Of a stretch of 64,000 nt of DNA, positions 23,807 to 47,387 are shown piece after piece. Position numbers and translations under genes: made by a program. A model generated the notes under the pieces. It saw nothing but the letters and a program-made list of their open reading frames with translations. It made no database searches and was not told the DNA's origin. The stretch covers positions 1 to 64,000 of IMG/VR virus record IMGVR_UViG_3300017971_002799. One strand, written 5' to 3'. Position 1 is the stretch's first letter. Each line of letters begins with the position of its first letter. The DNA comes from a virus (Duplodnaviria; Heunggongvirae; Uroviricota; Caudoviricetes).

Positions 23807-23881
23807 TGCAGGGTAGAGCAGAGGCAGCTCGCTTGGCTCATAACCAAGAGGTCGACGGTTCGAGTCCGTCCCCTGCTACCA
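23807..23881 (+). tRNA. tRNA-Met (anticodon CAT) with initiator-like features
   Basis: Hand-folded cloverleaf: acceptor (T)GCAGGG/CCCTGC(T), U8, D-stem GAGC/GCTC with A11:U24, anticodon stem CTTGG/CCAAG, loop CTCATAA, T-arm GACGG-TTCGAGT-CCGTC, discriminator A, encoded CCA. There is a 1:72 mismatch. Confidence 0.7.
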
Positions 23882-25056: not shown

Positions 25057-25749
25057 ATGACAGTAAAAGCTGTTATACTATTATCTGGCGGCCTAGACAG
25101 TTCAGTAGTCGCCTACATAGCGAGGCATGACATAGGAGAGTCAGGGGATTTATATGCTCTGACTCTTTCTTATGGTCAAAGACACGAAAGAGAAATAGAA
25201 AGTGCTATGGACATCGCGAGAGCTGTCGGGGCTTGTCAGCATATTATACTCAAAGGCTTACCAATAGATGTCCTAGTTAAAACCGCTTTAACAGGGGATT
25301 TCGAAGTTCCAACAGATGGAGTCAGTGCCGAGATACCTTCTACTTGGGTTCCACAAAGAAACAGTATCTTCCTAGGACTTGCTTTCGCTCTTGCGGAGAC
25401 TGTTGACGCTCGCGCTGTTTACATAGGTGTTAATTCTGTAGACTACTCTGGCTACCCAGATTGTCGACCAGAATTCATATCGTCAGCAGAAAAGACTTTT
25501 AACCTAGCGAGTAAAAGGTTTGTAGAGAAGCGCAGAGCAATCGAGTTAAGAACTCCGATAATTAGTAAGTCTAAAAGAGATATTGTTCGTTGGGGTATGG
25601 AGTTGAGGGTTCCATTCGATTTAACTTGGTCTTGTTATCAAGGTAACGAAAAGGCCTGCGGGGTCTGCGATAGCTGTCGGATAAGAGTAGCAGCTTTTAG
25701 GAGTCAGGGATTAACAGATCCTATTGAGTATGAAGAGGTTGTAAAATGA
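25057..25749 (+). CDS. queC: 7-cyano-7-deazaguanine synthase QueC
   Basis: PP-loop LLSGGLDSS; YGQRHEREIE; C-terminal zinc motif CYQGNEKACGVCDSCRIR; size ~230 aa. Confidence 0.85.
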   Translation: MTVKAVILLSGGLDSSVVAYIARHDIGESGDLYALTLSYGQRHEREIESAMDIARAVGACQHIILKGLPIDVLVKTALTGDFEVPTDGVSAEIPSTWVPQRNSIFLGLAFALAETVDARAVYIGVNSVDYSGYPDCRPEFISSAEKTFNLASKRFVEKRRAIELRTPIISKSKRDIVRWGMELRVPFDLTWSCYQGNEKACGVCDSCRIRVAAFRSQGLTDPIEYEEVVK

Positions 25750-26083: not shown

Positions 26084-26677
26084 TTGTCCGTGTTGGACGA
26101 GCAATTTAAACAAGCCAGTAGCGATTTGGTAAGCAGCCTTAGAGAGATGTATAAAGATTGGGATGGTGTAAGTCAGTTCAATGATACAGAGAATCGACTA
26201 ATCCGATTGTTTGACGAATTCTGTTGGCCTCCCGATAAGATTGAGACTGCTTTGGATAAACACTTCAAAGCAACCTTTCCACATCAGTTTGATGAGATGC
26301 TGGTGTCAGGCCCTTTTAAAGTCTTCACTTTATGCCCACACCACTTAGTACACTGCGAACTCCAGACGACCATCGCTTATGTACCTAGTGACAATAAGGT
26401 ATTAGGCTTGTCGAAATTTATCAGAATAGCAGAAACGATGGCTCGCAGACCTATACTCCAAGAACAGTTCTGCAACGAACTTGCTTGTGAGTTTGAAAAG
26501 AGACTTCACCCCAAAGGCGTTGCTGTTTATGTCGTAGGTAAGCATGGATGCATGACTTCTCGAGGCGTTAGACAACACTCAAGAGTCACAACAAGTGTCT
26601 TAAAGGGGACATTTGAAACGCAAGCAGTAACGCGTGCAGAGTTCTTTGCCATAGCTAGAAACGGGAAGGTAGAATGA
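26084..26677 (+). CDS. folE: GTP cyclohydrolase I (FolE)
   Basis: CPHHLVHC (FolE CEHHLxPF zinc site); VLGLSKFIRIAETMARRPILQEQF (FolE GLSKxxRxVExxxRRLQVQE). Confidence 0.8.
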   Translation: MSVLDEQFKQASSDLVSSLREMYKDWDGVSQFNDTENRLIRLFDEFCWPPDKIETALDKHFKATFPHQFDEMLVSGPFKVFTLCPHHLVHCELQTTIAYVPSDNKVLGLSKFIRIAETMARRPILQEQFCNELACEFEKRLHPKGVAVYVVGKHGCMTSRGVRQHSRVTTSVLKGTFETQAVTRAEFFAIARNGKVE

Positions 26678-28009: not shown

Positions 28010-28741
28010 ATGTTACTATCATTGGAAATACCAACGGGGATGTTAAAATTGATAACACCGTTAACGGACTTCGAATTCGCCTTAACACACCTTGTACTAA
28101 GCGATCAGGAGTATCAAAAACATTACGCGGAATCCGCAAACTTCAAAATTCTCGACAACTCTGTTAATGAAACCGGTACTCCCACCACGATTGCGGAACT
28201 GGAAGAAGCTGCGAGGATTATTCTACCAGATGTGATTTGTCCACCAGACTATTTTCTAGATGCTGACAAAACTCTGGACGCTCTAGAGGACTCGCAAGAT
28301 GTTTTCGACTTTGAAAAAATTCTACCAATTCTCCAAGGAGACTCCCACGATGTCGCTACTGATTGCGCTTGGGAAATACATAAAATGGGGTTCAACAAAC
28401 TAGCAATCCCGTATAGTATAACAAAAGATAGAAAAGCTGACTCTAGAGATAGTATGGCGGAAGCTCGTTATAACATTATCTATACTATATCTGGGCTGTT
28501 CGAGTGGATACATCTTTTGGGCGTGACTACACTAGACGAGCTCGGGGCTTATAGTGAGTTTCGCAACGTTTCCACTCTTGATACAGGAGTACCGATTACA
28601 GCTGCTTTTAAAGACTATAGCTTAGCAAGTCAAGAGTTACACCCCAAGAGTCAAAAGATGGTTTGGGATGGAGAGATTACTCCTGCGATTTGCAATCTAG
28701 CGCTCTACAACATAGCGTACCTAAGAACAGCTATGGTATAA
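28010..28741 (+). CDS. TGT-family DNA transglycosylase DpdA-like protein (paralog 1)
   Basis: FKILDNS aligns with the TGT DSGG loop; ILPILQGDSHDVATDCAWEIHKMGFNKLAIPYS aligns with TGT GIVQGGxYxDLRxxSxxxLxxxGFDGYAIGG; lies next to the preQ0 synthesis genes. Confidence 0.4.
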   Translation: MLLSLEIPTGMLKLITPLTDFEFALTHLVLSDQEYQKHYAESANFKILDNSVNETGTPTTIAELEEAARIILPDVICPPDYFLDADKTLDALEDSQDVFDFEKILPILQGDSHDVATDCAWEIHKMGFNKLAIPYSITKDRKADSRDSMAEARYNIIYTISGLFEWIHLLGVTTLDELGAYSEFRNVSTLDTGVPITAAFKDYSLASQELHPKSQKMVWDGEITPAICNLALYNIAYLRTAMV

Positions 28742-31857: not shown

Positions 31858-32253
31858 ATGCTATATATTTGTAAGAGATTCAAATTCGATGCCGCACATC
31901 GACTACCGCATTATAACGGGCCCTGTAAAAATCTTCATGGACATACCTACTTCCTAGATGTGAAGGTAAGCGGTCCGAAACAAGTAGAAGGACCTTGCAA
32001 AGGTATGATAATGGACTTCTCCATCTTGAAGACTGTAATACAAGAGAACGTCATCAGTCTGTATGATCATAACGATCTTAATAACTTCTTTAGTAACCCT
32101 ACTGCCGAGTTAATGGTTGAACAAATCTGGTATGACATCGTGGGTCAACTCGAGTTCAAAGGGGTTGTTCTAGAGGAATTAAGACTATGGGAAACTCCTG
32201 ATAGCTATGCAGAGATGAAAAGAGATCTTCCAGGAGTTGTAGGACCTTTATAA
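31858..32253 (+). CDS. queD: 6-carboxy-5,6,7,8-tetrahydropterin synthase QueD
   Basis: FDAAHRLPHYNGPCKNLHGHTY carries the QueD/PTPS zinc motif Cx5HGH; size 131 aa. Confidence 0.8.
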   Translation: MLYICKRFKFDAAHRLPHYNGPCKNLHGHTYFLDVKVSGPKQVEGPCKGMIMDFSILKTVIQENVISLYDHNDLNNFFSNPTAELMVEQIWYDIVGQLEFKGVVLEELRLWETPDSYAEMKRDLPGVVGPL

Positions 32254-32576: not shown

Positions 32577-32872
32577 GAGGAAAAATGAAAAAGGGACAGT
32601 TAATCGCAAAGCTTTTCATATTCACTGCAGGTATGGTATGGATGTTACTCTTTTTGTATATCTGTATCGTTTGCTTTGACTTCTTCAGAGAAGTTATGTT
32701 TGCCTACGGTGAAATAGACTTGGATAACTGGTTTATGACTGTGCTAGAGACATGGTATTTGCTTACCTGTATCGCTAGCGGCATCTGGCTTGCTCGCAGA
32801 ATGTTTCTAGTCGTTGGAGAATGGCAAAGGGAGAAGGTAAATGGTAATGGAAACCAAAAATCCAATTCTTAA
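32501..32872 (+). CDS. small membrane protein (likely true start MKKGQL at 32586)
   Basis: Two TM helices; SD ttaggaggaaaaATG precedes the ATG at 32586. Confidence 0.45.
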   Translation: MEDFILCNLLWDNHNRNYILDKNMLGGKMKKGQLIAKLFIFTAGMVWMLLFLYICIVCFDFFREVMFAYGEIDLDNWFMTVLETWYLLTCIASGIWLARRMFLVVGEWQREKVNGNGNQKSNS

Positions 32873-33554
32873 AGTAAACGAAGTTTTTTACTCCATTCAG
32901 GGAGAAGGTCTCACTGCAGGCGAGCCTACAATCTTTGTCAGACTTCAAGGGTGTAACTTAAAATGCAAGTACTGCGATACCACTTACGCACAAAACGGCG
33001 CTAGGGGTCTTCTTATAGGTACAGACGAGATCGTTAACTTGGTAAAGTCCCGATCAGAAAATAGTGTAATCGGAAAACGCTGGGTTTGTATTACCGGCGG
33101 CGAACCTCTCAAACAAATGATAGCGTTAGGGAGTCTAGTTCCTAAATTAAAGAAAGAAGGCTTCCTTATTGAGATAGAAACAAACGGGACTTATCTAAAA
33201 CCCTCCTGGTTTAACACTATCGACTCCTGGGTAGCTGATATAAAGTGTCCCTCTTCTAACTACTCCCCAACTGAAGGCATGATAACACTTTGGTTAAACA
33301 GTAGAGAACAAGATCAAGTAAAATTCGTTGTGGATAGTCATGAAGATCTACGCTTCGTAAGAAGACTACTCACAGAAGGATTTAACAACCGAAAGTACTT
33401 CAAGCCCAAGATACTGGTTAGTCCAGCTGCTAACGAGGATGCAGAGTTTAATCGAGACTGGATGGAAGAGGTCGTCGAGTTCTGTAAAGAATTGAACATT
33501 CGATTTTCTTTACAGATACATAAACTCATTTGGAAAAATAGAATAGGAGTTTAA
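32841..33554 (+). CDS. queE: 7-carboxy-7-deazaguanine synthase QueE (radical SAM)
   Basis: [32 protein letters not shown] (CxxxCxxC); GGEP motif; size 237 aa. Confidence 0.85.
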
Positions 33555-34831: not shown

Positions 34832-35329
34832 ATGAAGTTTAAACTCACAATAGACATGATCCCCGCTTGTAACTGGGGTGAGAATCTGCATAACTATCTC
34901 GACGCTCCAATCTGGGATTCTGTTAGAAGAGAAGTCTATACTCACTTCAATCTTAGATGTGCAATCTGTGGCGCATCAAATACAAAACTACACTGTCATG
35001 AAGACTGGGATATCAATGACAAGAAGTGTGCCCAAAAGCTTAGAGGCTTTCTCGCTCTCTGCGAAGATTGTCATAACGTAAAACATTGGGGGAGAACCAC
35101 AGCTGTTATAGAACAAGGGAAGTTAGATCCCTATTACAAAATAACTCTAACTAAACACTTCTGTCGAGTCAACGATTGTGGCACAAGTGATTTTGAGAAA
35201 CACGCCGCAGAAGCTAGATCTAAATGGTCTTTTAGAGCAAACAGAAGATATAAACTGAACTGGGGCAAGTTTAGTCCCGATAGAATAACAAGGGAGTATA
35301 TGAAACAAAATGCTAAGCGAAAACGCTAA
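34832..35329 (+). CDS. HNH endonuclease-like protein
   Basis: CAICGASNTKLHCHEDWD...CEDCHNVKH (HNH His-Asn-His with zinc cysteines). Confidence 0.5.
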   Translation: MKFKLTIDMIPACNWGENLHNYLDAPIWDSVRREVYTHFNLRCAICGASNTKLHCHEDWDINDKKCAQKLRGFLALCEDCHNVKHWGRTTAVIEQGKLDPYYKITLTKHFCRVNDCGTSDFEKHAAEARSKWSFRANRRYKLNWGKFSPDRITREYMKQNAKRKR

Positions 35330-37361
35330 AGATCTACTGAAAAGAAAATACTGTGCACCAGGAGAAGACTTTACAGACCTCTGTAAACGAGTCGCTACAC
35401 ATATCGCTCAAGCTGAAGAAGAAGGCAAGCGAGGATACTGGGAGCAATCCTTTTTCGACATTCTCAGCCATTTAGAGTTTCTACCAAACACTCCTACACT
35501 TGTCAATGCAGGAAAAGGAACAGGTCAACTATCTGGCTGTTTCGTTGTTCCTATAGAAGACTCCATCGAAGGAATCTTTGAAGCGATCAAGCATACAGCT
35601 ATGATACATAAAAGTGGAGGCGGAACAGGTTTTTCCTTTTCTCATATAAGACAGAAGGGAGCAGAGACCAGTAACGGGATAGCGAAAGCTGCTGGTCCAA
35701 TTGCTTTCATTGATGCCTTTAATACTTCTGTGGGAGCAGTAACTCAAGGTGGAAATAGGCCTGGTGGTAATATGGCTATTCTATCTGTAAATCATCCAGA
35801 CGTCATGGACTTTATAGAGGCGAAGAGAGTTGAGGGCGTTCTTAGTAACTTCAATCTGTCTGTCGCAATAACAGACGAGTTTATGAAAGATGTTGAATAC
35901 GATAGAAAGTCAGACCTGATAGATCCTCATACAGAATTGTTATACGATAGAATAAACGCAAAAGATCTTTTCGAGTCTATAGCCAAAGAGGCTTGGGAGA
36001 AGGGTGATCCTGGTGTAGTCTTCATTGACAGAGTAAACGCAGACGATCCAACTCCTTGGCTAGGACCAATTGAAGCTACTAATCCTTGTGGCGAGCAACC
36101 GCTACATCCTTTCGAATCTTGTAACCTCGGATCGATAGATCTAAGTAAATTCATTATTGAACGAGACCGCGACTTTGATTGGGTGCGTCTACAAGTTGCA
36201 GTACGAACAGCTGTAAGATTCCTAGACGATGTAATTGATGTAAACGTTTATCCTCTTGACATAATAGCTGAAACCACTAAGAATACCCGTAAAATTGGTT
36301 TAGGCGTTATGGGCTGGGCAGACGCTCTTATCAAGATGGGTATAATATATGATAGTGAAGAAGCTCTTAAACGTGCTGAGTTCGTAATGAGATTCATCCA
36401 AAGTGCAGCACATGAATACTCAATAGAGCTCGCAGAAGAAAAAGGAGCTTATCCAGCTTACATTGAGGATACGAGAACATTTCACAATCCTGAACAAGTG
36501 CAAAAGCCGCAGAGAAACGCCTGCGTTACAACAATAGCGCCGACGGGAAGACTCAGTATCATAGCTGACTGCTCAGGCGGAATTGAACCTATTTGGGATA
36601 TAGAGTTCCCTAGAACCCAAGCTGGAGAAACTGTTATAGACAAACATCCTCTTTGGGGTCACTATGACATTGAACTCTTTAGAAAAGCCCTCGAGATACC
36701 TTGGGAGTGGCACGTTAAGATGCAAGCAGCTTTCCAGAAGCATGTTGACAACGCTGTTTCAAAAACAATCAACCTCCCCAATGAAGCTACTTGGGAAGAT
36801 ATTTTGGGAGCATACTCACTCTCATACGAACTCGGCTGTAAAGGCGTTACTGTATATCGAGACGGCTGCAGAGATTTTCAAGTATACGGAACGAGAAGTC
36901 CCGAAGAAGAAGCGAGAAGTCGAAAGAGGCCGTCAGTAACATTTGGTACCACAGAAAGCATTCCTATAACCTGTGGTAAATTATACGTCACAGTTAACCA
37001 AGACGGACAAGGTATCTGTGAAGTGTTTGCTTCTCTAGGAAAGTCAGGTGGCTGTATCAATGCTCACCTTGAAACGATTGGGAGACTTGCATCTAACTCT
37101 TTAAGGAGTGGTGTTGCTATTGATCAAGTTATTAGAACGCTAAGCGATGTGAGATGCCCCAAACCTAGTTGGCATCAAGGTGTTAACCTTACATCGTGTA
37201 TTGACGCTATAGCTTCCGTACTGAGAGCCAGAGCCAATCTAGCTGCCACAGGTGGGAATACTAAACAAATCACTGGACAGTGTCCCATCTGTAGTGGGTT
37301 GTTGGTTCATCAAGAAGGATGCGATATTTGTCTCTCCTGCGGCCACTCAAGTTGTGGATAA
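35310..37361 (+). CDS. nrdJ: Ribonucleotide reductase class II (adenosylcobalamin-dependent, NrdJ)
   Basis: N-terminal LEFLPNTPTLVNAG...CFVVPIEDS; active-site NPCGEQPL; C-terminal zinc-ribbon CPICSG...CDICLSCGHSSCG. Confidence 0.8.
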   Translation: MLSENAKDLLKRKYCAPGEDFTDLCKRVATHIAQAEEEGKRGYWEQSFFDILSHLEFLPNTPTLVNAGKGTGQLSGCFVVPIEDSIEGIFEAIKHTAMIHKSGGGTGFSFSHIRQKGAETSNGIAKAAGPIAFIDAFNTSVGAVTQGGNRPGGNMAILSVNHPDVMDFIEAKRVEGVLSNFNLSVAITDEFMKDVEYDRKSDLIDPHTELLYDRINAKDLFESIAKEAWEKGDPGVVFIDRVNADDPTPWLGPIEATNPCGEQPLHPFESCNLGSIDLSKFIIERDRDFDWVRLQVAVRTAVRFLDDVIDVNVYPLDIIAETTKNTRKIGLGVMGWADALIKMGIIYDSEEALKRAEFVMRFIQSAAHEYSIELAEEKGAYPAYIEDTRTFHNPEQVQKPQRNACVTTIAPTGRLSIIADCSGGIEPIWDIEFPRTQAGETVIDKHPLWGHYDIELFRKALEIPWEWHVKMQAAFQKHVDNAVSKTINLPNEATWEDILGAYSLSYELGCKGVTVYRDGCRDFQVYGTRSPEEEARSRKRPSVTFGTTESIPITCGKLYVTVNQDGQGICEVFASLGKSGGCINAHLETIGRLASNSLRSGVAIDQVIRTLSDVRCPKPSWHQGVNLTSCIDAIASVLRARANLAATGGNTKQITGQCPICSGLLVHQEGCDICLSCGHSSCG

Positions 37362-38649: not shown

Positions 38650-39102
38650 ATGAGTCTACTGAGAGGATTTATAGGTATAACAGTTGCCATTGGTGTGTAC
38701 TGCTTTCTCACTTATGGCATACTCGCTTCTCATGAAGACGACCTAGATCTAAGACAACAAATCGAGGACGACGGTTGGCAGTACAAGGGAGAAACTATAA
38801 TCGAGCACTCTTTGTATGAGGAAATAGTGGCAACAGAAGGTGTTAGCTCTCTAGCTGCTGACGAGATTAGGATCGTAAGAGTTGAGGACAACAATACAGT
38901 GCTAATCGACTACGCTTTCTTGTCTCTAAACGAGTATGAAAATCTAGACAAAGCCGATTGGGGTTTCGATCGAAGATTTTACAATCACACCGAGCCCATA
39001 GTTAGAGTATTCATATTCCTAGGTTCTATAGTAACATTCCTCATGATAGCCTTTGGACCAACCACCCGGAGAGTAGAACGTGGACAGTCAGAAACTGTAT
39101 GA
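38650..39102 (+). CDS. membrane protein (TM at both ends)
   Basis: Hydrophobic N- and C-terminal segments. Confidence 0.45.
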   Translation: MSLLRGFIGITVAIGVYCFLTYGILASHEDDLDLRQQIEDDGWQYKGETIIEHSLYEEIVATEGVSSLAADEIRIVRVEDNNTVLIDYAFLSLNEYENLDKADWGFDRRFYNHTEPIVRVFIFLGSIVTFLMIAFGPTTRRVERGQSETV

Positions 39103-39445
39103 TGAGGCTCTCGAACAATGGGGCATGGACTCTCAAAAACTAATGCTCGTAGAGGAATGTCTTGAACTGGCTTTAAATATTGTAAAGACTTACAGAGCCG
39201 ACTGTCAAATAACTCGAGAGGACATCGCTGAAGAAATCGCTGACGTGAGAATAATGATAGAACAAGTCGAACAAGCAATGGAGTTAGATGACTTGACAAG
39301 CCACTCGTACGTATATAAACTAAGAAGACTCGAAACAAGACTGTTTCCACCGAAAGTAGATATGGAAGGCGCAATAGAAATAGATCCCAAAGACAAATTC
39401 GTCTTGGAGGAATTCAATGTGTCTAAAGAAGATTTGTCCGAATGA
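39080..39445 (+). CDS. MazG-like nucleotide pyrophosphohydrolase (start ambiguous: duplicated MDSQKL)
   Basis: LVEECLELALN...REDIAEEIADVRIMIEQV resembles the MazG EExxELxxA...EELADVLxY motif. The hexapeptide MDSQKL is encoded twice with synonymous codon differences. Confidence 0.5.
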   Translation: MDSQKLYDEALEQWGMDSQKLMLVEECLELALNIVKTYRADCQITREDIAEEIADVRIMIEQVEQAMELDDLTSHSYVYKLRRLETRLFPPKVDMEGAIEIDPKDKFVLEEFNVSKEDLSE

Positions 39446-39864: not shown

Positions 39865-40040
39865 GTAAAGGCTACACAGAACCAATACCTATAATAGTCG
39901 CAATAATTGTAGGAACTCTTATCGCTTCAACAATAAATCTAGCCTCACAAGGAACCTACCTTGCGATCGTTCCCGCAATCACTGCAACCATAGCTTTAGG
40001 AATGTATGTATATCACTTAAGGAGAAAGCTGCGTGATTGA
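39861..40040 (+). CDS. small membrane protein (59 aa)
   Basis: Not in the ORF track; MSKGYTEPIPIIVAIIVGTLIAS...AIVPAITATIALGMYVYHLRRKLR; overlaps the polymerase start. Confidence 0.35.
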   Translation: MSKGYTEPIPIIVAIIVGTLIASTINLASQGTYLAIVPAITATIALGMYVYHLRRKLRD

Positions 40041-42414
40041 CCTAAGACTTTGCAATTGTGAAGAGTGTCCTCTATTCGGCTCCGGTATGGTTGTTACCAG
40101 ACGACCTTTTATATCTCCATACAATGTGATATACAAAGCAGTTACACGCAACAACGTTTTTCTGCAGCACTTTCGGATAGCTGAAGTCGAAGAGATCGAC
40201 CCTGTAGAAGTTCTTCTTATTGGAATGGCCCCCGCTTATGAAGAACTTCGCCAAGGAGATTTCTTTGTAGGCCAATCGGGTTTGCTCCTCAATGCTGTTA
40301 TGGGACAGTTAGACTACGATAGCTACGCTGTCTCTAACGTTTTGCTTTGTAGAATACCTGAAGAAGCTACACAATCTGAAATAAACAAAGCCGCTGATTG
40401 TTGCTTTCCAAGGCTGGAAGCTCAAATAAAGGAGTACCAACCAAAGTTATTAGTTGCTTTGGGAAACCTGCCTTTACACACTCTAACAGGTTTAAACATA
40501 GGTATAATGACGGCCGAAGGAAGGGTTCTCCCCAGTGACTATGGAGACGTTCTCGCAGTACAACACCCTGCAGCTGTTTTAAGATTTCCAGACAACTACC
40601 CAGACTTCCTAGAAGCTTTAAAAGGCGGTCTCAGATGGAAGTATGGAACTTACAAACAAATCACAGACGAACCTAATACTGTAGTTGTCGATGAAAACAA
40701 TATGGCCGATGTTTGTCAAAGAATCGAAAACGCCGGACTGGCAGCTATAGATCTCGAAACAACTCGTACAGGACTTAACCCTTATGGCCGAGAGCCTGAT
40801 GGTATTCGTTGTATGGCTATCACAATCGAACCAACGACAACATATATAGTACCAGGAGAAAGCTCTCCATACTGGCCTGAGCACCCTAACTTCATAAATC
40901 ATCCTGCTTTGATGGAAGTTATTCCTAAAGTTAAAGGTGTTTACCACAACGGACAATTTGATTGTGCTTTCATGTGGCAGACTGGCTATCGAAACAAAAT
41001 GTATTACGATACGATGATAGCACATCAAATAATGGATGAGAGGCCGAGATCCCATGGTTTGAAGGTATTAGCAAGAAAGAGATTGGGAGCGCCTGACTGG
41101 GAACATGATATAAAAAGGTATTTGCCTACTGGGAAAAGTAGTTATGACCTAATCCCCGACGACGTGCTCTATAGATATGCCTCTTTCGATACGATAGCCA
41201 CATATTTACTCTATCAACAATTCGAATCGGAAACTCGAGGGACGTTTTTCGACAAGTTCCTTATGAGAGCCGCTAACATGTTTGTAGATCTTAGGCACAC
41301 GGGAATTCGAATAGATCCTTGGGTTCTCATGCAAGCTGATGAGCTACTGGAGCAAGATCTGGACCAGAAAATAAAAGAGCTTTACGAAATCATCGGCCAT
41401 TATATAAACCCTCTGTCGTGGGCACAAGTTGCTGAACTACTGTACGATGAATTAGAACTACCACAAATAGCTGGACGTTCAACATCGGTTGACATACTTA
41501 AGAGATTACCTTATCATCCCGCTATAGAAAAGATTATAGAAATTAGACAGGCATCCAAGTTACGTTCTACTTACGTTTTATCTCTAATAGGGTTTATGGA
41601 TAACGATTATAGAGTACATCCAACAATCAAACTAGCAAGCACTGTAACAGGGAGAGCTTCGTCTGAAGATCCCTCTGTCATGACAATTGTGAGAAACAAT
41701 AACATCAAAAAGATGTATCTGCCCGAAGACGGTTCTCTCTTTATGGAAGCTGATGCAAAGCAGATGGAAGTAAGATGGTTTGCTATTTACAATCAAGACG
41801 AGGTGTTAAGAAAACTCTTAAACGAGGGCGACCCTCATGACATGATTAGAAAGCACATCTTAAAACTCACAGGGAAAGATTACCCAAGAGTGAGAGTAAA
41901 AGGTGCTGTTTTTGGTAAGATGTATGGCCGAGGAATTGATTCCTTCATGGCTGAATTTGGTGTACCTGCAGATGAAGCACAAGAGATCATTAATGGTATA
42001 ACAGAATTACTACCTACACTAAAACAGTACAACGATAGAATCGAGCACGATATAAAAACACTCGGTTACTTAACCAGCTACTTCGGAAGAATAAGAAGAT
42101 TCGGATTGTTAACGAAACGATCTTTTTATGAAGCACTCAAACAGGGAGTCAACTTTCCAATTCAATCAGCTGCCTCAGATACTAACTTATGGACGATGGT
42201 TCATCTCTATGAGAATGCTGATAAGTTTGGTATAGTGCCGCACTTCCCAGTTCATGACTCTGTTATCATGAGTATACAAGACAAGGATATGGTTCCGCTT
42301 GTGAAGAAGGAAATGGAGACCTTTAGTCAGGAAATTGTTAACAACGAAATGGAATTCGACATTGAAGTTAAAATAGGCCCTAACTGGGGCGAAACAAAGT
42401 TGTTAGAGGTATAA
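40033..42414 (+). CDS. Family A DNA polymerase with 3'-5' exonuclease and N-terminal UDG-family-4-like domain (catalytic Glu replaced)
   Basis: N-terminal LLIGMAPAYEELRQGDFFVGQSGLLLN (UDG4 GEAPGxxExxxGxPFVGxAGxLL, with E->M) and QHPAAVLR (UDG motif B). Exo I AIDLETT, Exo II YHNGQFDCAF, Exo III YASFDTIATY. Pol motif A EADAKQMEVRW, motif B RVKGAVFGKMYG, motif C VHDSV. Confidence 0.85.
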   Translation: MIDLRLCNCEECPLFGSGMVVTRRPFISPYNVIYKAVTRNNVFLQHFRIAEVEEIDPVEVLLIGMAPAYEELRQGDFFVGQSGLLLNAVMGQLDYDSYAVSNVLLCRIPEEATQSEINKAADCCFPRLEAQIKEYQPKLLVALGNLPLHTLTGLNIGIMTAEGRVLPSDYGDVLAVQHPAAVLRFPDNYPDFLEALKGGLRWKYGTYKQITDEPNTVVVDENNMADVCQRIENAGLAAIDLETTRTGLNPYGREPDGIRCMAITIEPTTTYIVPGESSPYWPEHPNFINHPALMEVIPKVKGVYHNGQFDCAFMWQTGYRNKMYYDTMIAHQIMDERPRSHGLKVLARKRLGAPDWEHDIKRYLPTGKSSYDLIPDDVLYRYASFDTIATYLLYQQFESETRGTFFDKFLMRAANMFVDLRHTGIRIDPWVLMQADELLEQDLDQKIKELYEIIGHYINPLSWAQVAELLYDELELPQIAGRSTSVDILKRLPYHPAIEKIIEIRQASKLRSTYVLSLIGFMDNDYRVHPTIKLASTVTGRASSEDPSVMTIVRNNNIKKMYLPEDGSLFMEADAKQMEVRWFAIYNQDEVLRKLLNEGDPHDMIRKHILKLTGKDYPRVRVKGAVFGKMYGRGIDSFMAEFGVPADEAQEIINGITELLPTLKQYNDRIEHDIKTLGYLTSYFGRIRRFGLLTKRSFYEALKQGVNFPIQSAASDTNLWTMVHLYENADKFGIVPHFPVHDSVIMSIQDKDMVPLVKKEMETFSQEIVNNEMEFDIEVKIGPNWGETKLLEV

Positions 42415-42596
42415 AGGTTTGTATAAATACGTTGTCTGTTTCTTTAACAAGAAAAACGAAGTGGTAGCTACTTATGACAACGTAGATGCTTGGTCTAACT
42501 TCGAAGCATATGCAGAGGTTAAATCAGACTTCACTTCCTGGTTTACCGAACAATATTCCTACTTAACAGAAAGACTTAACGAGGATTGGTGATATA

Positions 42597-42905
42597 ATGA
42601 ATCTTTGTTTTAGACATGCAGTGCTAAGAGTAGCTCAAAAAGGCGAAAAGATTTATCCTACTACCTTTAAAGTGAAAAACGAATGTGCCGACTGTCAAGA
42701 GGAAGAGCGAATTGAGACTTTAAGACACCGGACTCAAGACGTCGTTGAAGTCGCTCGGATGAAGGATCCCGAATACAAAACCTGGAAGGAAGAAACTCTA
42801 AAAGATTGCGAGTACGGAAGCTACGAAACAGTCTGCAGGCATCCCAACAATAGCACAAGAGACCTAAAAGGTAATTGTGACTTCGAAAAGTGTCCGAGAA
42901 GGTAA
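42597..42905 (+). CDS. hypothetical Cys-containing protein
   Basis: ORF track. Confidence 0.4.
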   Translation: MNLCFRHAVLRVAQKGEKIYPTTFKVKNECADCQEEERIETLRHRTQDVVEVARMKDPEYKTWKEETLKDCEYGSYETVCRHPNNSTRDLKGNCDFEKCPRR

Positions 42906-43272
42906 AACAGGAGGTATAGTGTTAAAAGAAGAACTGCGATTAAGAATAGGTCATCTAATCACAGAAGGACAACAAAAGGAAAGTGACAAGCTGTGGCCTA
43001 CTGTAGATCAAATAATCGAACTATTTGAAAAACGAAAACAAGAAACTGCAGTCTCAAGAGCACAACTTCACTACTGTAGATCTGAAATCAACGCAATATT
43101 CCAGCTAAGCATTTTTAGTGACTGTTGTACCTGGAAACGAGAAAACAAATGTTTGCACCTCCACGCTGATAAGTGCACTTATAACGGAGTTATGTTGACG
43201 TGTATTCGTAACGAAAAATACGAAAAAGCCTTAAAGGAACTTTACAAAGTGTACGATAAACTGGAGATATAA
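42877..43272 (+). CDS. hypothetical protein
   Basis: ORF track; probably a GTG start. Confidence 0.4.
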   Translation: MTSKSVREGKTGGIVLKEELRLRIGHLITEGQQKESDKLWPTVDQIIELFEKRKQETAVSRAQLHYCRSEINAIFQLSIFSDCCTWKRENKCLHLHADKCTYNGVMLTCIRNEKYEKALKELYKVYDKLEI

Positions 43273-43329
43273 AGATAATGAGATTAAGAACTAAGATCTT
43301 AATAACTCTTCAAATAGGAGGATTGAACA

Positions 43330-43980
43330 GTGATTAAAGGAGAACTAAAACCAATCACAATAAAGGCTTTCGATCTGTCACAAGCTTTCTACAGATGCTG
43401 CAAGTCAATTCTCGTAGAAGGATTTGACTACAAAATCGATAAGGGAAGCTCTGAAGGAAGATTTAGAAAAGAGTTTGACTTCGTGACCATCCAAATATCA
43501 AGACCAGACGCACGACCTCTGTATCCTGATATTCCAGATGGTATACCTTCTCCCTGTAACATGAGTCAAATAGAAGATTACATGGACTATCTCATAACTC
43601 CTACTAAACAGGAGAACGAACAATATACCTATGGAGAGTTTATACATCACCAAATACCCACAGTAATAGAGAGATACAAAAGAGACGGTGAAGGTTGCAA
43701 TCAGCTTTACATGACTATAGGAGATCAATACTCAATGCAAATGCCCGATCCCCCTTGTCTCAGAGGGATAGATACACGAATAAGATATGGAAGATTACAC
43801 TTCATGGTATACTTCAGGAGTTGGGATCTCTGGGCGGGTTTTCCAGTCAACCTAGGGGGCATACAACTCTTAAAAGAGTATATGGCTAACGAAATTGGGA
43901 TTGAAGATGGTGAACTCATTGCCTGTAGTAAAGGACTTCACTTATATGATCACTGTTGGGAACTAGCGGAGGCTTTGTAA
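43330..43980 (+). CDS. Thymidylate-synthase-family enzyme (short; ThyA / pyrimidine hydroxymethylase-like)
   Basis: PDPPCLRGI (ThyA PPCH nucleophile region); LHFMVYFRSWDLWAGFPVNLGGIQLL (ThyA QFYVxxxxLSCQLYQRSxDxFLGxPFNIASYALL); GELIACSKGLHLYDHCWE (ThyA GDFxxxxGDTHLYSNH). Confidence 0.6.
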   Translation: MIKGELKPITIKAFDLSQAFYRCCKSILVEGFDYKIDKGSSEGRFRKEFDFVTIQISRPDARPLYPDIPDGIPSPCNMSQIEDYMDYLITPTKQENEQYTYGEFIHHQIPTVIERYKRDGEGCNQLYMTIGDQYSMQMPDPPCLRGIDTRIRYGRLHFMVYFRSWDLWAGFPVNLGGIQLLKEYMANEIGIEDGELIACSKGLHLYDHCWELAEAL

Positions 43981-44061
43981 TGTTAGTAACAGAAATCGTA
44001 CTCGTCGGTTTAGTAATCGGCGTAGCTATAATAGTAATCAAAGAGCGAAACTAAAAAGAGG

Positions 44062-44661
44062 TTGCAAATAATGGACATCATTCCTTATGGGAAAAAGTAT
44101 CCAGACGTTACTAAGCTACTATATGACAAAGGCTATCTAAGGAGATATCCAAAACAACACAAAAGAGATGATCTACAGTACGACGATGGCATAGACATTG
44201 TCTACGATCTGAAAAACCTACCACCTGCAAAGTTTACGGAAGCATCTGACTTGTTACTACTAGCTGCCTATACAGAAGCACAAAGATATAAAGACGCTAC
44301 GTACAAATTCGCAAAGTTCATGGTGCACCTCAACAGAACAGCGCAAGGGAAAAAGCAGGTAAAGAAAGAAAGAGGTTATATAGCAAGTAGACATCGCGAT
44401 CCTGAAATCATGGTATACGGAGAACAAGGTCTTGGATACGAACTACCGGAAGAAGAGAAAAAGCCTTTCTTGATCAACAAAGTACAAGAGATACTAGGAA
44501 TTCCCGATAGCCCTAGCCCTGGTCCTTATGTCAAAAAACAACAACCATATAAAGTAATCAGACTAACAATTGGAATCAGAGCTGGCAAGATGTGGGAAGG
44601 TGTTCCAGGTCTTCTTATTCCTGGTGTGACTAATGTTAGCGAAGAAGCTACAGAAGAATGA
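44062..44661 (+). CDS. hypothetical protein; candidate terminal (priming) protein for the adjacent PolB
   Basis: The stop overlaps the PolB start (gaagaATGAaagg) and the protein is Lys/Tyr/Ser-rich. There is no sequence-level proof; the call rests on synteny with protein-primed replicons. Confidence 0.3.
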   Translation: MQIMDIIPYGKKYPDVTKLLYDKGYLRRYPKQHKRDDLQYDDGIDIVYDLKNLPPAKFTEASDLLLLAAYTEAQRYKDATYKFAKFMVHLNRTAQGKKQVKKERGYIASRHRDPEIMVYGEQGLGYELPEEEKKPFLINKVQEILGIPDSPSPGPYVKKQQPYKVIRLTIGIRAGKMWEGVPGLLIPGVTNVSEEATEE

Positions 44662-46391
44662 AAGGAATAGCAACCTTTGACATCGAGGCGGTAGCATGGG
44701 ACCAACCTATCGCTGTTGGCTTCTACGATGGAGAAAAGTATTTCGAGTTCCTTAAGATTAATGAAGATCACGATGTTATTGGTAGTTTCCTCGACTTCCT
44801 AAAGGTAAACTACCAAGGAATAAGAATCTACGCTCACAACGCTGGTGAGTATGATAACAAATTCATACTCCAAAGTCTACATCGTCGAGGTCAACGTGTA
44901 GCTATGAGTTTGGGTCAAGCCAGGCTTGAGTGGCTAGGTTTGCATATAACATTCGAAGACAGCTACCTAATGCTAAGTAGAAGACTGAGCGCTATCTGTT
45001 ACGCCTTCAATATCCCTATGAAACTAGACTGGGATCACTCTCAAACGAAGAACATTTGGGAGATGGGTGATCTAGAAGAGTTTAGAGCCTACCTGAAAAG
45101 AGATTGTGTATCTCTATCTGAAGCCATAGCAGCATATGCACAAGAACTCATCAGCAAATTCGGGGTTGCCCCCTCTACAACCATGGCTCTGACATCAGTA
45201 AAGGCCTTCAATAAAAGATTCTATCCCGTTAGTAAAATAAACGCTAACTTCGAATACGAAAACAGAATTAGACAAGCAACCTTTGGAGGGCGAAACGAAG
45301 TATATAACAAACATGGCTTAGGTATTTACTTTTACGACGTTAGAAGTATGTACGTATCTTGCTATGATACACCTGTTCCTATAGGCAAAATGTCTTGGAC
45401 TTCAAACGAGTTAGAGAAAGGAACAGTAACAGAGGCTATTGTAAAAGTTCCCACTTGGATGAACATTGGGCCTCTTCCCTATAGATATAGACCTTACAAC
45501 AACAGTGGATACGGACATTTAATGTTTCCAGTAGGAACTTTTCCTGGCGTTTGGGATACCATTGAACTAATGAATGCTGTAAATCTAGGTTGCGACGTTA
45601 CAGTTATAAAACAACTAGCCTGCGAAGAATCTCCCATACTAGACAAATTTGGAAAATACATTGCATACCTAAGAGAACAAGCAGAGAATGAAGAAAGAGA
45701 AAGAATCTGGAAAAACGTTGGTGTGCGATTAAGTGGAAAGTTTGGACAGCATCGTATCATGCAGGAGATTAAGCACGCAACAGAGATAGAGGACTATGAA
45801 GGTTGGTGTGCTATAGATGACGACGAAATATACTTCGAAAGAATGGTAGCAAAAGACCCAAAAGGATCGCCTTACATCAAGCCAGCCGTTAACATGAGAG
45901 TAAGATCAGAAGCCAGGATAAGACATCTACGAAAATTGCTTGAAGCAGAAGATAAAGGAACATTATACTATTGCGACAACGACTCCGTTTGCTCTAGTAC
46001 GCCTTTATACAATGGAAGGAAGGCTGGGGAGTTGCAGCTCTTAGACTACGCTAAAGAAGCTTTCTTTATTAGATGTAAGTTCTACGGTTACCTAAACAGA
46101 AAAGGACACCTGAATCAAAGAACAGCAGGATATAGGGATTTTAAATTAACGGAACAAGACTTCAGAGATCTGCTACAGGGAAAAACCTTGTACAATACCT
46201 TCCAAAGTCTCAGTCACTGGAAAAGTTCTTTAACAGAAGAAGGTGTAAAGATGATCGACCGTAGCAGGTCAGTAGCGATGTCTAGAGGGTTTGACAATAG
46301 AGAGTCAGTGGGATTGAAGACCCGCCCTATAGAGTTAGGTATGAAGGATGGTGAAGTGTTTAGAGTTAAAAGAAATGAGGAGAAAGAGTAG
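44658..46391 (+). CDS. Compact family B DNA polymerase of phi29/protein-primed type (577 aa)
   Basis: Exo I FDIEAV, Exo II YAHNAGEYDNKFIL (phi29 YHNLKFDGAF), Exo III YLKRDCVSLSEAI (phi29 YIKNDIQIIAEAL), motif A FYDVRSMYVS (DxxSLYPS), motif B KNVGVRLSGKFGQ (KxxxNSxYG), motif C YYCDNDSV (YCDTDS). Confidence 0.65.
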   Translation: MKGIATFDIEAVAWDQPIAVGFYDGEKYFEFLKINEDHDVIGSFLDFLKVNYQGIRIYAHNAGEYDNKFILQSLHRRGQRVAMSLGQARLEWLGLHITFEDSYLMLSRRLSAICYAFNIPMKLDWDHSQTKNIWEMGDLEEFRAYLKRDCVSLSEAIAAYAQELISKFGVAPSTTMALTSVKAFNKRFYPVSKINANFEYENRIRQATFGGRNEVYNKHGLGIYFYDVRSMYVSCYDTPVPIGKMSWTSNELEKGTVTEAIVKVPTWMNIGPLPYRYRPYNNSGYGHLMFPVGTFPGVWDTIELMNAVNLGCDVTVIKQLACEESPILDKFGKYIAYLREQAENEERERIWKNVGVRLSGKFGQHRIMQEIKHATEIEDYEGWCAIDDDEIYFERMVAKDPKGSPYIKPAVNMRVRSEARIRHLRKLLEAEDKGTLYYCDNDSVCSSTPLYNGRKAGELQLLDYAKEAFFIRCKFYGYLNRKGHLNQRTAGYRDFKLTEQDFRDLLQGKTLYNTFQSLSHWKSSLTEEGVKMIDRSRSVAMSRGFDNRESVGLKTRPIELGMKDGEVFRVKRNEEKE

Positions 46392-46585
46392 TGTTTATTA
46401 AAATAACCTGCAAGATACATCCAACGGAAAGTCTAAATGCAAAACTAGAACCTACAGAAGATAGTTTCGAGATAAGAATTACTCCCTGCACCAAATGTAT
46501 GGAAGATAAAATCAGATTCGGAAGAGATTCCGGTGTGGCTGAGTTTATTAGATCTGTTAAAGAGAAAGTGGGAATGAAAGATTGA
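46391..46585 (+). CDS. hypothetical small Cys-containing protein
   Basis: ORF track; last gene of the rightward block. Confidence 0.4.
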   Translation: MFIKITCKIHPTESLNAKLEPTEDSFEIRITPCTKCMEDKIRFGRDSGVAEFIRSVKEKVGMKD

Positions 46586-46599
46586 GGATGGGAAAGAAG

Positions 46600-46630
46600 A
46601 GGAGACATGTTAGTGGAACCACATCTCCTC
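46600..46630. terminator. hairpin between convergent blocks (possible bidirectional terminator)
   Basis: GAGGAGA...TCTCCTC inverted repeat between the last plus gene and the last minus gene; no clean U-run. Confidence 0.25.
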
Positions 46631-46688
46631 TTGCTATCCCTGTATAGGAGGAGAGACCGTATTTCTTCTTAACCGGACAGTCTCGGGA

Positions 46689-46847
46689 TTATCCTTTCTT
46701 TCCGCCAGGCTTACCGCGCTTGTAACCGCTTACCTTGACAGTTTTGTTACCACGTTTGTAAGAGAAGCCCTTAACAGAAACGGCACTGCCTCGCTGCTTT
46801 CCCTTCATTTTACCCTTCGGTAACTTTTTCTTCGGTTTCGTAGCCAT
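46689..46847 (-). CDS. small highly basic KG-rich protein (52 aa)
   Basis: Not in the ORF track; SD aggaggtattttctaATG; MATKPKKKLPKGKMKGKQRGSAVSVKGFSYKRGNKTVKVSGYKRGKPGGKKG. Confidence 0.5.
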   Translation of the reverse strand: MATKPKKKLPKGKMKGKQRGSAVSVKGFSYKRGNKTVKVSGYKRGKPGGKKG

Positions 46848-46892
46848 TAGAAAATACCTCCTGTTAGATTATAGAACCCTCGAGGGGAGAAT

Positions 46893-47387
46893 TCACTTAG
46901 TCTTCCATCGTCCTTCCTTCTGCATGCGGCTCTTAATCCTCTCAGCTTTACCAGCGCCGAGGTACTTCGAAGCCATGCTAAAGTTGTCCTTAACCATACT
47001 CTCTTCCATGTTCTTCCGTTGCTGATAAGCCTGCTTGGCGTAATTCTGACGATAAGCCTTATCTTGCTCTTCAGTACGTTTTGGACCGCGCCTTCGAGGA
47101 GCAAGCCCTACTTTCTCCAGCTCCTCTCGTTCTTTCTCACGCTTCGCTTTAGCTCTTGCAGCCTGGGCAGCTTTACGCTCAGCTTCCGAACCATACTTTT
47201 TCTTAGTACCCTTCATTCCGGTAATGCGAAGAACTAACGCGCCCTTCTCCTTCTTGTCAAGGTTCTTAGCCTTCTTACCCAACACGATATCCGCAACACT
47301 AACCTCTTCAGGCCCGCTGCCGATATCAATCATGGCCGTCATCTCCATGATCGAGGGATCAAATTTTGGTGCTAACTCCTTAGACAT
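46893..47387 (-). CDS. basic Lys/Arg/Ala-rich protein
   Basis: ORF track; AQAARAKAKREKEREELEKV low-complexity basic region. Confidence 0.5.
   Translation of the reverse strand: MSKELAPKFDPSIMEMTAMIDIGSGPEEVSVADIVLGKKAKNLDKKEKGALVLRITGMKGTKKKYGSEAERKAAQAARAKAKREKEREELEKVGLAPRRRGPKRTEEQDKAYRQNYAKQAYQQRKNMEESMVKDNFSMASKYLGAGKAERIKSRMQKEGRWKTK

Follow-up and report, generated by a model that had tools for sequence, protein, structure and literature searches.

A short-form ThyA-family enzyme encoded between two DNA polymerase genes of a Caudoviricetes phage

INTRODUCTION

The locus described in this work raises the question of whether a phage enzyme bearing the core motifs of thymidylate synthase (TS) makes ordinary dTMP or, instead, a modified pyrimidine. 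The gene resides in a stretch of 64,000 nucleotides (referred to here as the window) that comprises positions 1 to 64,000 of the IMG/VR record IMGVR_UViG_3300017971_002799 (Caudoviricetes). An initial annotation of this DNA proposed a possible pyrimidine hydroxymethylase, based on the residue believed to set the preference for dUMP or dCMP. Our analysis of sequence, predicted structure, and gene context indicates that the product is probably a short-form ThyA-type TS, i.e., an ordinary dTMP maker. It belongs to a family of ∼215-aa proteins that occurs widely among anaerobic bacteria and CPR/DPANN organisms and among the viruses of these hosts.

RESULTS

A TS superfamily gene in the phage replication module

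Only one long open reading frame is present in the window sequence at the position of the gene, and this frame is a genuine gene of the TS superfamily (Table 1). Both the GC content (0.40) and the GC3 (0.36) of the gene are the same as in the remainder of the phage, which argues for a long-resident phage gene. An identical protein is encoded on independently assembled contigs of ∼87.8 kb from an ENA metagenome and a JGI metagenome. The PPC, RSxD, GxPxN, and HLY motifs by which the initial annotation recognized the superfamily are all in place, as is the YDHC segment (residues 206 to 209). Across 160 members of the short TS family, the catalytic cysteine is invariant (160/160), while the RSWD motif, N174, H204/Y206, and Y101 (equivalent to Y94 of Escherichia coli ThyA) are invariant or nearly so.

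Table 1. Coordinates of the TS gene, its motifs, and neighboring genes in the window
Feature	Position	Strand	Basis
Ribonucleotide reductase (Ribonuc_red_lgN/lgC + TSCPD)	35310..37361	+	Pfam
MazG-like nucleoside triphosphate pyrophosphohydrolase	39080..39445	+	PHROG 2245, E 2.6e-21
Family A DNA polymerase with N-terminal UDG domain and 3'-5' exonuclease	40033..42414	+	PF03167, PF01612, PF00476
Shine-Dalgarno AGGAGG, 7 nt 5' of GTG start	43317..43322	+	Read from sequence
CDS, short-form (methanogen-like) ThyA-family enzyme, 216 aa, GTG start	43330..43980	+	
D140-P141-P142-C143, catalytic cysteine loop; C143 = E. coli C146	43747..43758	+	Alignment
R163-S164-W165-D166 = E. coli R166-S167-C168-D169; predicted dUMP phosphate and cofactor binding	43816..43827	+	Alignment
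G170-F171-P172-V173-N174; N174 = E. coli N177, dUMP/dCMP selector	43837..43851	+	Alignment, PMC8670742
H204-L205-Y206-D207-H208-C209; H204, Y206 = E. coli H207, Y209	43939..43956	+	Alignment
DNA_pol_B_2-type polymerase	44658..46391	+	PF03175

The genomic setting is as initially annotated: the TS gene adjoins the polymerases, being located between the polymerase-UDG fusion (PolA-UDG) and the DNA_pol_B_2-type enzyme, and it is accompanied by 7-deazaguanine genes, with QueC, FolE, QueD, and QueE all found in the window upstream of TS. In two related phages (L091 and L099), TS is kept in the same module with QueD/QueE, ribonucleotide reductase (RNR), PolA-UDG, and PolB. Among the neighboring genes that carried no annotation, PHROG and Pfam scans added only the MazG-like pyrophosphohydrolase, which may supply dUMP from dUTP. 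Pfam analysis of the called genes at record positions 1 to ∼69,700 detected no dNMP/thymidylate kinase, dCMP deaminase, dUTPase, or DHFR and no glycosyltransferase, 5-HMUDK, or aGPT-Pplase; no dTTPase was found in the ∼70 kb. Local seed and HMM searches of the window ORFs for hydroxymethyl-pyrimidine accessory genes were negative, with no GT4 homolog retrieved. Because this phage diverges strongly and has few Pfam matches anywhere, the missing accessory genes provide weak evidence.

Assignment by profile and fold

The protein was matched by Pfam PF00303 (E value of 1.4e-9; 37.9 bits versus a cutoff of 24.3) over residues 108 to 211 only, and by the PHROG thymidylate synthase families. In contrast to the partial Pfam match, TIGR03283 (methanogen-type TS, NCBIfam) covered the full length, with residues 10 to 211 aligned to positions 2 to 199 of the 201-position profile (E value of 4e-27). 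The TIGR03283 score of 95 bits is below the equivalog cutoff of 174.55, which suggests a sister family to methanogen-type TS rather than a member of it. The canonical ThyA equivalogs (TIGR03284 and NF002497) gave 34 to 37 bits against cutoffs of 108 to 327 and were not reached.

When the family profile was compared to those of named relatives using hhalign, the best-ranked match was the methanogen-type TS of Methanobacterium virus PhiF1 (probability of 98%, E value of 2e-13, 183 columns). This was followed by AB434P2 (E value of 1e-11), Ab18 ORF14 (E value of 5e-11, P of 97.1, full length), the SP8 dUMP hydroxymethylase (E value of 1e-9, P of 96.4, full length), and, in fifth place, E. coli ThyA (E value of 1e-8), for which only the C-terminal half was aligned. 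T4 gp42 trailed far behind the other relatives, with a probability of 16%. At the level of family profiles, the phage protein is closer to phage proteins of the dUMP hydroxymethylase type than to E. coli ThyA, and this ranking counts against the TS reading.

The predicted structure has the alpha/beta fold of TS. In fold comparison, the top solved structure was AfhB, a flavin-dependent 5-hydroxy-dCMP synthase; MilA was also among the closest, T4 dCH was structurally similar as well, and all BFVD fold matches were at or below 20% identity. Judged by these sequence criteria, the phage gene is placed outside canonical ThyA, TIGR03283 proper, and every established hydroxymethylase family. It appears best filed as a viral member of a known, uncharacterized kind whose nearest named relative would be methanogen-type TS.

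Several features are held in common with that relative, represented by ORF59 of PhiF1. Methanogen-type enzymes are ∼200 to 220 aa, like the phage protein; both groups have the P-C-L and YTYG motifs and a polar or acidic residue 3 positions before the catalytic Cys, and both are without the C-terminal lid. PhiF1 ORF59 also adjoins a polymerase-UDG fusion, as the phage gene does. However, identity is only 27%, and the short family is found in bacteria, CPR/DPANN organisms, and phages, not in methanogens; the cofactor is therefore presumably folate rather than methanopterin. A literature search on the methanogen-type enzyme (TIGR03283; MJ0757) found no papers.

A large family of ∼215-aa proteins in cells and viruses

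The phage protein is 55 to 62% identical over its full length to chromosomal ∼215-aa proteins named "thymidylate synthase" (a name given by database annotation only) in Dehalococcoidia, Desulfobacterota, CPR, and Nanoarchaeota. A word-indexed search retrieved 7,967 database proteins at an E value of ≤1e-3. The best 120 of these are 57 to 82% identical and almost all 211 to 240 aa, and several, from Desulfobaccales, Chloroflexi, Dehalococcoidia, and Daviesbacteria genomes, are named thymidylate synthase. Representatives at 50% identity, searched exhaustively, yielded 144 clusters at an E value of ≤1e-30, and a one-genome-per-species scan gave at least 585 relatives. Hosts among the listed relatives include Dehalococcoidia, Chloroflexia, Desulfobacterota, Nealsonbacteria, and Nanoarchaeota, with some cellular relatives located on chromosomal contigs of 1.2 to 2.3 Mb. 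IMG/VR contains 172 viral relatives. A tblastn search of 50,697 deposited phage records returned no relative above ∼30% identity, and a megablast of window positions 40000 to 47000 against deposited phages returned no match. We know of no biochemically characterized member of the bacterial and viral short family. The cellular homologs have a median length of 216.5 aa; the initial description of the enzyme as short and divergent is accurate insofar as it is a short TS superfamily protein, but its shortness is not unusual, as 216 aa is the family norm.

The phage and chromosomal copies agree in length and in their catalytic and active-site-shell residues. At C143, L144, R163, S164, D166, N174, H204, Y206, Y99/Y101, N124, and Q125, the phage residue is that of all 80 cellular homologs compared. 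Differences are found elsewhere: the phage copy departs from the cellular homologs at 16 positions where these are ≥90% conserved, including R14F, W20F, R38K, Y80Q, E106H, and Y208H, and it lies in a replication module, whereas the cellular homolog is found in a housekeeping operon.

The substrate-selector residue

Preference for dUMP or dCMP is set by the residue at N177 in the E. coli enzyme, N229 in Lactobacillus casei, and D179 in T4 gp42 (PMC8670742; PMC13326640). Residues 107 to 211 of the phage protein align to E. coli ThyA at a constant offset of 3, which places N177 at Asn174, the last residue of GFPVN. The selector is Asn in the phage protein and in 159 of the 160 family members. The initial annotation had located the selector in the YxNH segment, where the phage protein has His; this was the wrong residue, as the true selector lies within GxPxN and His208 aligns with E. 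coli N211. All 80 cellular homologs have Tyr at position 208, and the 80 viral homologs include 55 with Tyr and 18 with His. With His-bearing viral copies scattered over the tree at a Tyr/His-variable position, His208 was rejected as a specificity determinant.

Gene context across the short family

A homolog 58% identical to the phage protein is encoded on a Daviesbacteria contig, preceded by pyrG (CTP synthase) and by genes for dCMP deaminase, a kinase, dUTPase, and thymidylate kinase and followed by rpsB, tsf, and frr. Similarly, a Nealsonbacteria contig carries dCMP deaminase, dUTPase, Tmk, and the short TS contiguously on one strand. Such an arrangement follows the de novo dTTP branch in its textbook order and provides the strongest evidence for dTMP synthesis by the family. 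At the Dehalococcoidia loci, the neighbors are ordinary chromosomal genes; Dehalococcoides genomes are reported to encode ThyX in addition to ThyA (PMC3224940), and the short enzyme may thus not be the sole TS there. A conserved 233-aa protein is encoded 5' of TS at 45/80 cellular loci; it was found neither at any viral locus nor in the window, and we rejected it as a TS partner, since its position probably reflects clade synteny.

No FolA/Frd-type DHFR was detected within 8 to 10 kb of the short TS at any of 80 viral or 80 cellular loci. At canonical viral ThyA loci, DHFR lies directly 3' of thyA in 24/80 cases in a control set biased to relatives of the E. coli enzyme, and the 24 DHFRs form 13 clusters at 60% identity. 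This result fits an enzyme that does not oxidize tetrahydrofolate (THF); host lineages without FolA would account for it equally well.

An association between the short TS and preQ0 genes was also considered and rejected, as QueD, FolE, or QueC is found near the short TS at ∼4 to 6 of 80 viral loci versus 2/80 for canonical ThyA, a difference that is not significant. The 19 "QueE" matches are probably generic radical-SAM activases.

DISCUSSION

A probable role in dTMP synthesis

Synthesis of dTMP is the best explanation for the phage enzyme because of the CPR operons and because the active-site residues are identical in the phage and chromosomal copies. By inference from the superfamily, Cys143 would attack C6 of dUMP. 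The uracil face would be read by Asn174, the phosphate held by Arg163, Ser164, and the loop at residues 36 to 46, and the deoxyribose held by His204 and Tyr206. A one-carbon unit from methylene-tetrahydropterin would then be added at C5 and reduced to methyl, giving dTMP. We infer both the identity of this cofactor and that the product carries a methyl and not a hydroxymethyl group. In the proposed pathway, RNR would provide the deoxynucleotide supply upstream of the TS step, and TS and RNR, possibly with the MazG-like pyrophosphohydrolase, would deliver dTTP to the two phage polymerases.

The dUMP hydroxymethylase alternative

The main rival reading, which we consider unlikely, is that the protein is a dUMP hydroxymethylase. 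Such an enzyme would transfer the methylene-THF carbon to C5 and quench the intermediate with water rather than hydride, yielding 5-hmdUMP; 5-hmdU in the DNA would then represent a second (pyrimidine) modification beside 7-deazaguanine. The signature of this activity, an Asn selector combined with an acidic residue 3 positions before Cys, is present as N174 and D140. Position 143 of the E. coli enzyme is occupied by a bulky hydrophobic residue in enzymes with methyl products and by Asp/Glu in T4-type hydroxymethylases and MilA, such that the residue 3 positions before Cys correlates with a hydroxymethyl product (PMC13326640). In the ungapped MAFFT alignment, Asp140 takes the place of L143, and the corresponding residue is Asp in T4 gp42, the SP8 dUMP hydroxymethylase, Ab18 ORF14, and AB434P2 and Glu in the PhiF1 methanogen-type enzyme. 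However, in the hhalign alignment, L143 is matched by the hydrophobic M138 and P139-D140 falls in an insertion; given this disagreement, the equivalence of D140 and L143 is alignment dependent. Moreover, D, H, N, and S all occur at position 140 across the family, chromosomal homologs included. The same D140 and N174 residues and the same active site occur in chromosomal homologs, among them those in the CPR dCMP deaminase-dUTPase-thymidylate kinase operons, which renders the signature uninformative within the family. To our knowledge, hmU DNA is not known in organisms carrying a chromosomal short TS.

Characterized relatives give a similarly divided picture. The SPO1 gp29/SP8-type and Ab18 ORF14-type dUMP hydroxymethylases share with the phage protein the Asn selector, the Asp 3 positions before Cys, and the full-length profile similarity described above, all of which favor the hydroxymethylase. 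On the other hand, identity is 25 to 26%, these enzymes are 348 to 383 aa with a large C-terminal extension compared with 216 aa here, and they have C-N after the catalytic Cys and RSND, where the phage protein has C-L and RSWD. In hmU phages, dUMP hydroxymethylase is accompanied by dNMP kinase, dTTPase/dTMPase, and dCMP deaminase (PMC8989533). No such companions were found in the ∼70 kb examined here, nor were 5-HMUDK, aGPT-Pplase, or a glycosyltransferase, which weighs against the hydroxymethylase.

Additional observations in favor of a dUMP hydroxymethylase are the lack of a C-terminal lid and of a Trp loop, which would leave the intermediate unshielded, the nearby MazG-like NTP pyrophosphohydrolase, and the enrichment of His208 and several other substitutions in viral copies. 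The 0/160 count for DHFR near the family would be expected if THF stays unoxidized, but this may only reflect FolA-less host lineages. GT4 families were matched by 7/150 viral neighbor proteins, and GT4-TS-GT4 arrangements occur in 3 to 4 IMG/VR contigs (L094, L104, and L155/L156). These were rejected as evidence for glycosylation of hydroxymethyl-pyrimidines, as in L094 and L104 the GT-flanked TS genes group with those of cellular Desulfobacterota and the window is without GT4.

Nonclassical chemistry and dCMP-directed activity

A broader reading, to which we likewise assign a small share, is that the whole short family departs from the classical conversion of methylene-THF to dihydrofolate, with the phage copy making 5-hydroxymethyl-dUMP or using an unconventional cofactor. 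The polar or acidic residue near Cys, the missing folate-loop Trp residues and lid, the lack of DHFR neighbors, and the AfhB/MilA-like structure suggest this reading. The departures from canonical ThyA (E. coli, EC 2.1.1.45) are extensive, as only the C-terminal half of that enzyme aligns to the phage protein. The IWDEW folate loop (E. coli W80/W83) falls in an alignment gap and is absent from the phage protein, and the C terminus is shorter by ∼45 residues, lid included: the phage protein stops 10 residues past HLY, while E. coli ThyA runs 55 further. Within the aligned region, H147 is replaced by Leu, Q165 by Phe, C168 by Trp, R126/R127 by Cys/Asn, and, in the ungapped alignment, L143 by Asp.

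A narrower and quite improbable version is that a TS fold operates with a nonclassical cofactor (flavin-assisted or another pterin), yielding dTMP without dihydrofolate or another C5 product of dUMP. The folate contacts of classical TS (W80, W83, L172, F176, and the C terminus) are lost or altered, and new aromatic residues (F162, W165, W168, and F171) are present, both of which are consistent with a changed cofactor site; the DHFR count can be read in the same way. Cofactor use by methanogen ThyA, described as unresolved (PMC9012536), also lends itself to this reading, as does the fact that, in several phage lineages, the short TS adjoins genes of tetrahydropterin chemistry (QueD, QueE, and FolE). 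Nevertheless, the frequency of Que genes at viral loci is not clearly above that of the canonical ThyA control. AfhB (phage HY126, PDB entries 9iqu/9iqc; RB69 gp48 type), the most similar solved structure, is a compact protein of 217 to 234 aa with 19 to 20% identity to the phage protein, and the likeness may reflect only this shared compactness. In addition, the phage protein has D166 in place of the hydroxylase-diagnostic Asn and N174 in place of Asp.

A dCMP-directed enzyme (hydroxymethylase, methylase, or hydroxylase), as implied by the initial annotation, finds support only in general membership of the superfamily and in a structural resemblance to MilA, AfhB, and T4 dCH and is essentially excluded by the near-invariant, uracil-type Asn174 selector on the published criterion, by the poor hhalign match to T4 gp42, and, for a 5-hydroxy-dCMP synthase, by Asp166 (E. 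coli D169), since such synthases carry D169N and N177D (PMC13326640) and the AfhB-type pair is absent here. Of the initial proposal of a pyrimidine hydroxymethylase, the specificity argument and the dCMP enzyme are thus set aside, and a dUMP hydroxymethylase is retained as a minority option on the other grounds given above.

Implications for the phage and the family

Taken at face value, the short-form TS would be a routine auxiliary metabolic gene, giving the phage its own thymidylate supply beside RNR and the polymerases. If the nonclassical reading were true, the phage lineage would have a modified pyrimidine along with 7-deazaguanine. The wider value of the locus lies in the very large family of compact, ThyA-like proteins to which it leads, annotated everywhere as "thymidylate synthase" and with a predicted cofactor site far from that of classical ThyA. 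The true activity of this family bears on annotation across thousands of genomes, or on new TS-fold chemistry, as well as on whether the 7-deazaguanine phages of this lineage may modify thymine too.

Phage genome and annotated features

The phage of the window was assembled independently in ena:ERZ27256798:k141_2096736 (87,816 bp) and jgi:3300028840 Ga0309773_1000552 (87,777 bp), and because these assemblies are nearly equal in length, the contig may represent a near-complete genome. Megablast of positions 40000-47000 gave no match to deposited phages. The GC content is 42%, and Pfam and PHROG families could be assigned to very few of the genes.

Features of the window discussed in this section
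Feature	Position	Strand	Assignment
tRNA-Met (one)	23807-23881		
QueC (preQ0 pathway set)	25057-25749		Pfam
FolE (preQ0 pathway set)	26084-26677		Pfam
243-aa ORF	28010-28741		No Pfam family
QueD (preQ0 pathway set)	31858-32253		Pfam
QueE (preQ0 pathway set)	32841-33554		Pfam
MazG-like nucleoside triphosphate pyrophosphohydrolase	39080-39445	+	PHROG 2245, E = 2.6e-21
Family A DNA polymerase, fused UDG and exonuclease domains	40033-42414		
Hydrophobic mini-ORF, 24 codons, MLVTEIVLVGLVIGVAIIVIKERN	43980-44054	+	
DNA_pol_B_2-type polymerase	44658-46391		

7-Deazaguanine genes and the short TS

The DpdA-type transglycosylase is missing from the annotated set, and the 243-aa ORF is a candidate for this role. 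Its only relatives in phage records are ∼26% identical over the full length and are hypothetical proteins of Campylobacter phages (CP20/CPt10/CP21 type) and Cellulophaga phages. Both phage groups have 7-deazaguanine in their DNA. In a second phage lineage, represented by two loci with short TS homologs (L092 and L093), QueD lies directly 5′ of the short TS (L092:9610-9996 and L093:8129-8515), and QueE and FolE follow 1 to 3 kb downstream; the short TS of this lineage is thus embedded in a 7-deazaguanine cluster. Measured against the 80 viral loci with canonical ThyA, the association of the short TS with 7-deazaguanine genes was not clearly above the control.

Neighbors and possible insertions in the short TS family

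A FolA/Frd-type dihydrofolate reductase was found within 8 to 10 kb of the short TS in none of the 160 loci, compared with 24 of 80 viral loci in which it is the next gene downstream of canonical thyA. dCMP deaminase occurs near the short TS in 12 of 80 viral loci. Upstream of the short TS, at a distance of ≤1.7 kb, 45 of the 80 cellular loci (among L011 to L089; e.g., L016:7294-7995) encode a conserved protein of ∼233 aa, which appeared in no Pfam family's tally in the neighbor scan (E ≤ 1e-5) and was found neither in any viral locus nor in the window. In cellular loci, a gene for a 292-aa radical-SAM protein often lies between it and the short TS.

Two GT4-family glycosyltransferase genes bracket the short TS in the IMG/VR contigs L094, L104, L155, and L156. 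They flank it directly in L104 and L155/L156, whereas in L094 a small ORF separates it from one of them; the arrangement could conceivably reflect base glycosylation. Because the TS proteins of L094 and L104 group with copies from Desulfobacterota chromosomes, these contigs may be of cellular origin.

Many family members, among them the 50%-identity representatives P0122, P0124, P0125, P0130, P0135, P0153, P0156, and P0173, are 490 to 990 aa long, and the 216-aa query matches them in two or three separate stretches. This pattern suggests large insertions within the short TS gene, which are probably inteins.

Polymerase neighborhood of the short TS

The two DNA polymerases of the window are spaced 2.2 kb apart, and a related IMG/VR contig (L091) keeps both, together with the 199-aa ORF that lies between them in the window. 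In Methanobacterium virus PhiF1, a methanogen-type TS likewise adjoins a polymerase fused to UDG. The ATG of the mini-ORF, which is missing from the calls of public gene sets, overlaps the short TS stop codon (TAATG). The mini-ORF may encode a small membrane peptide whose translation is coupled to that of the short TS. The MazG-like gene is located between RNR and PolA, and its product could serve as a dUTPase-type source of dUMP or could exclude a canonical dNTP.
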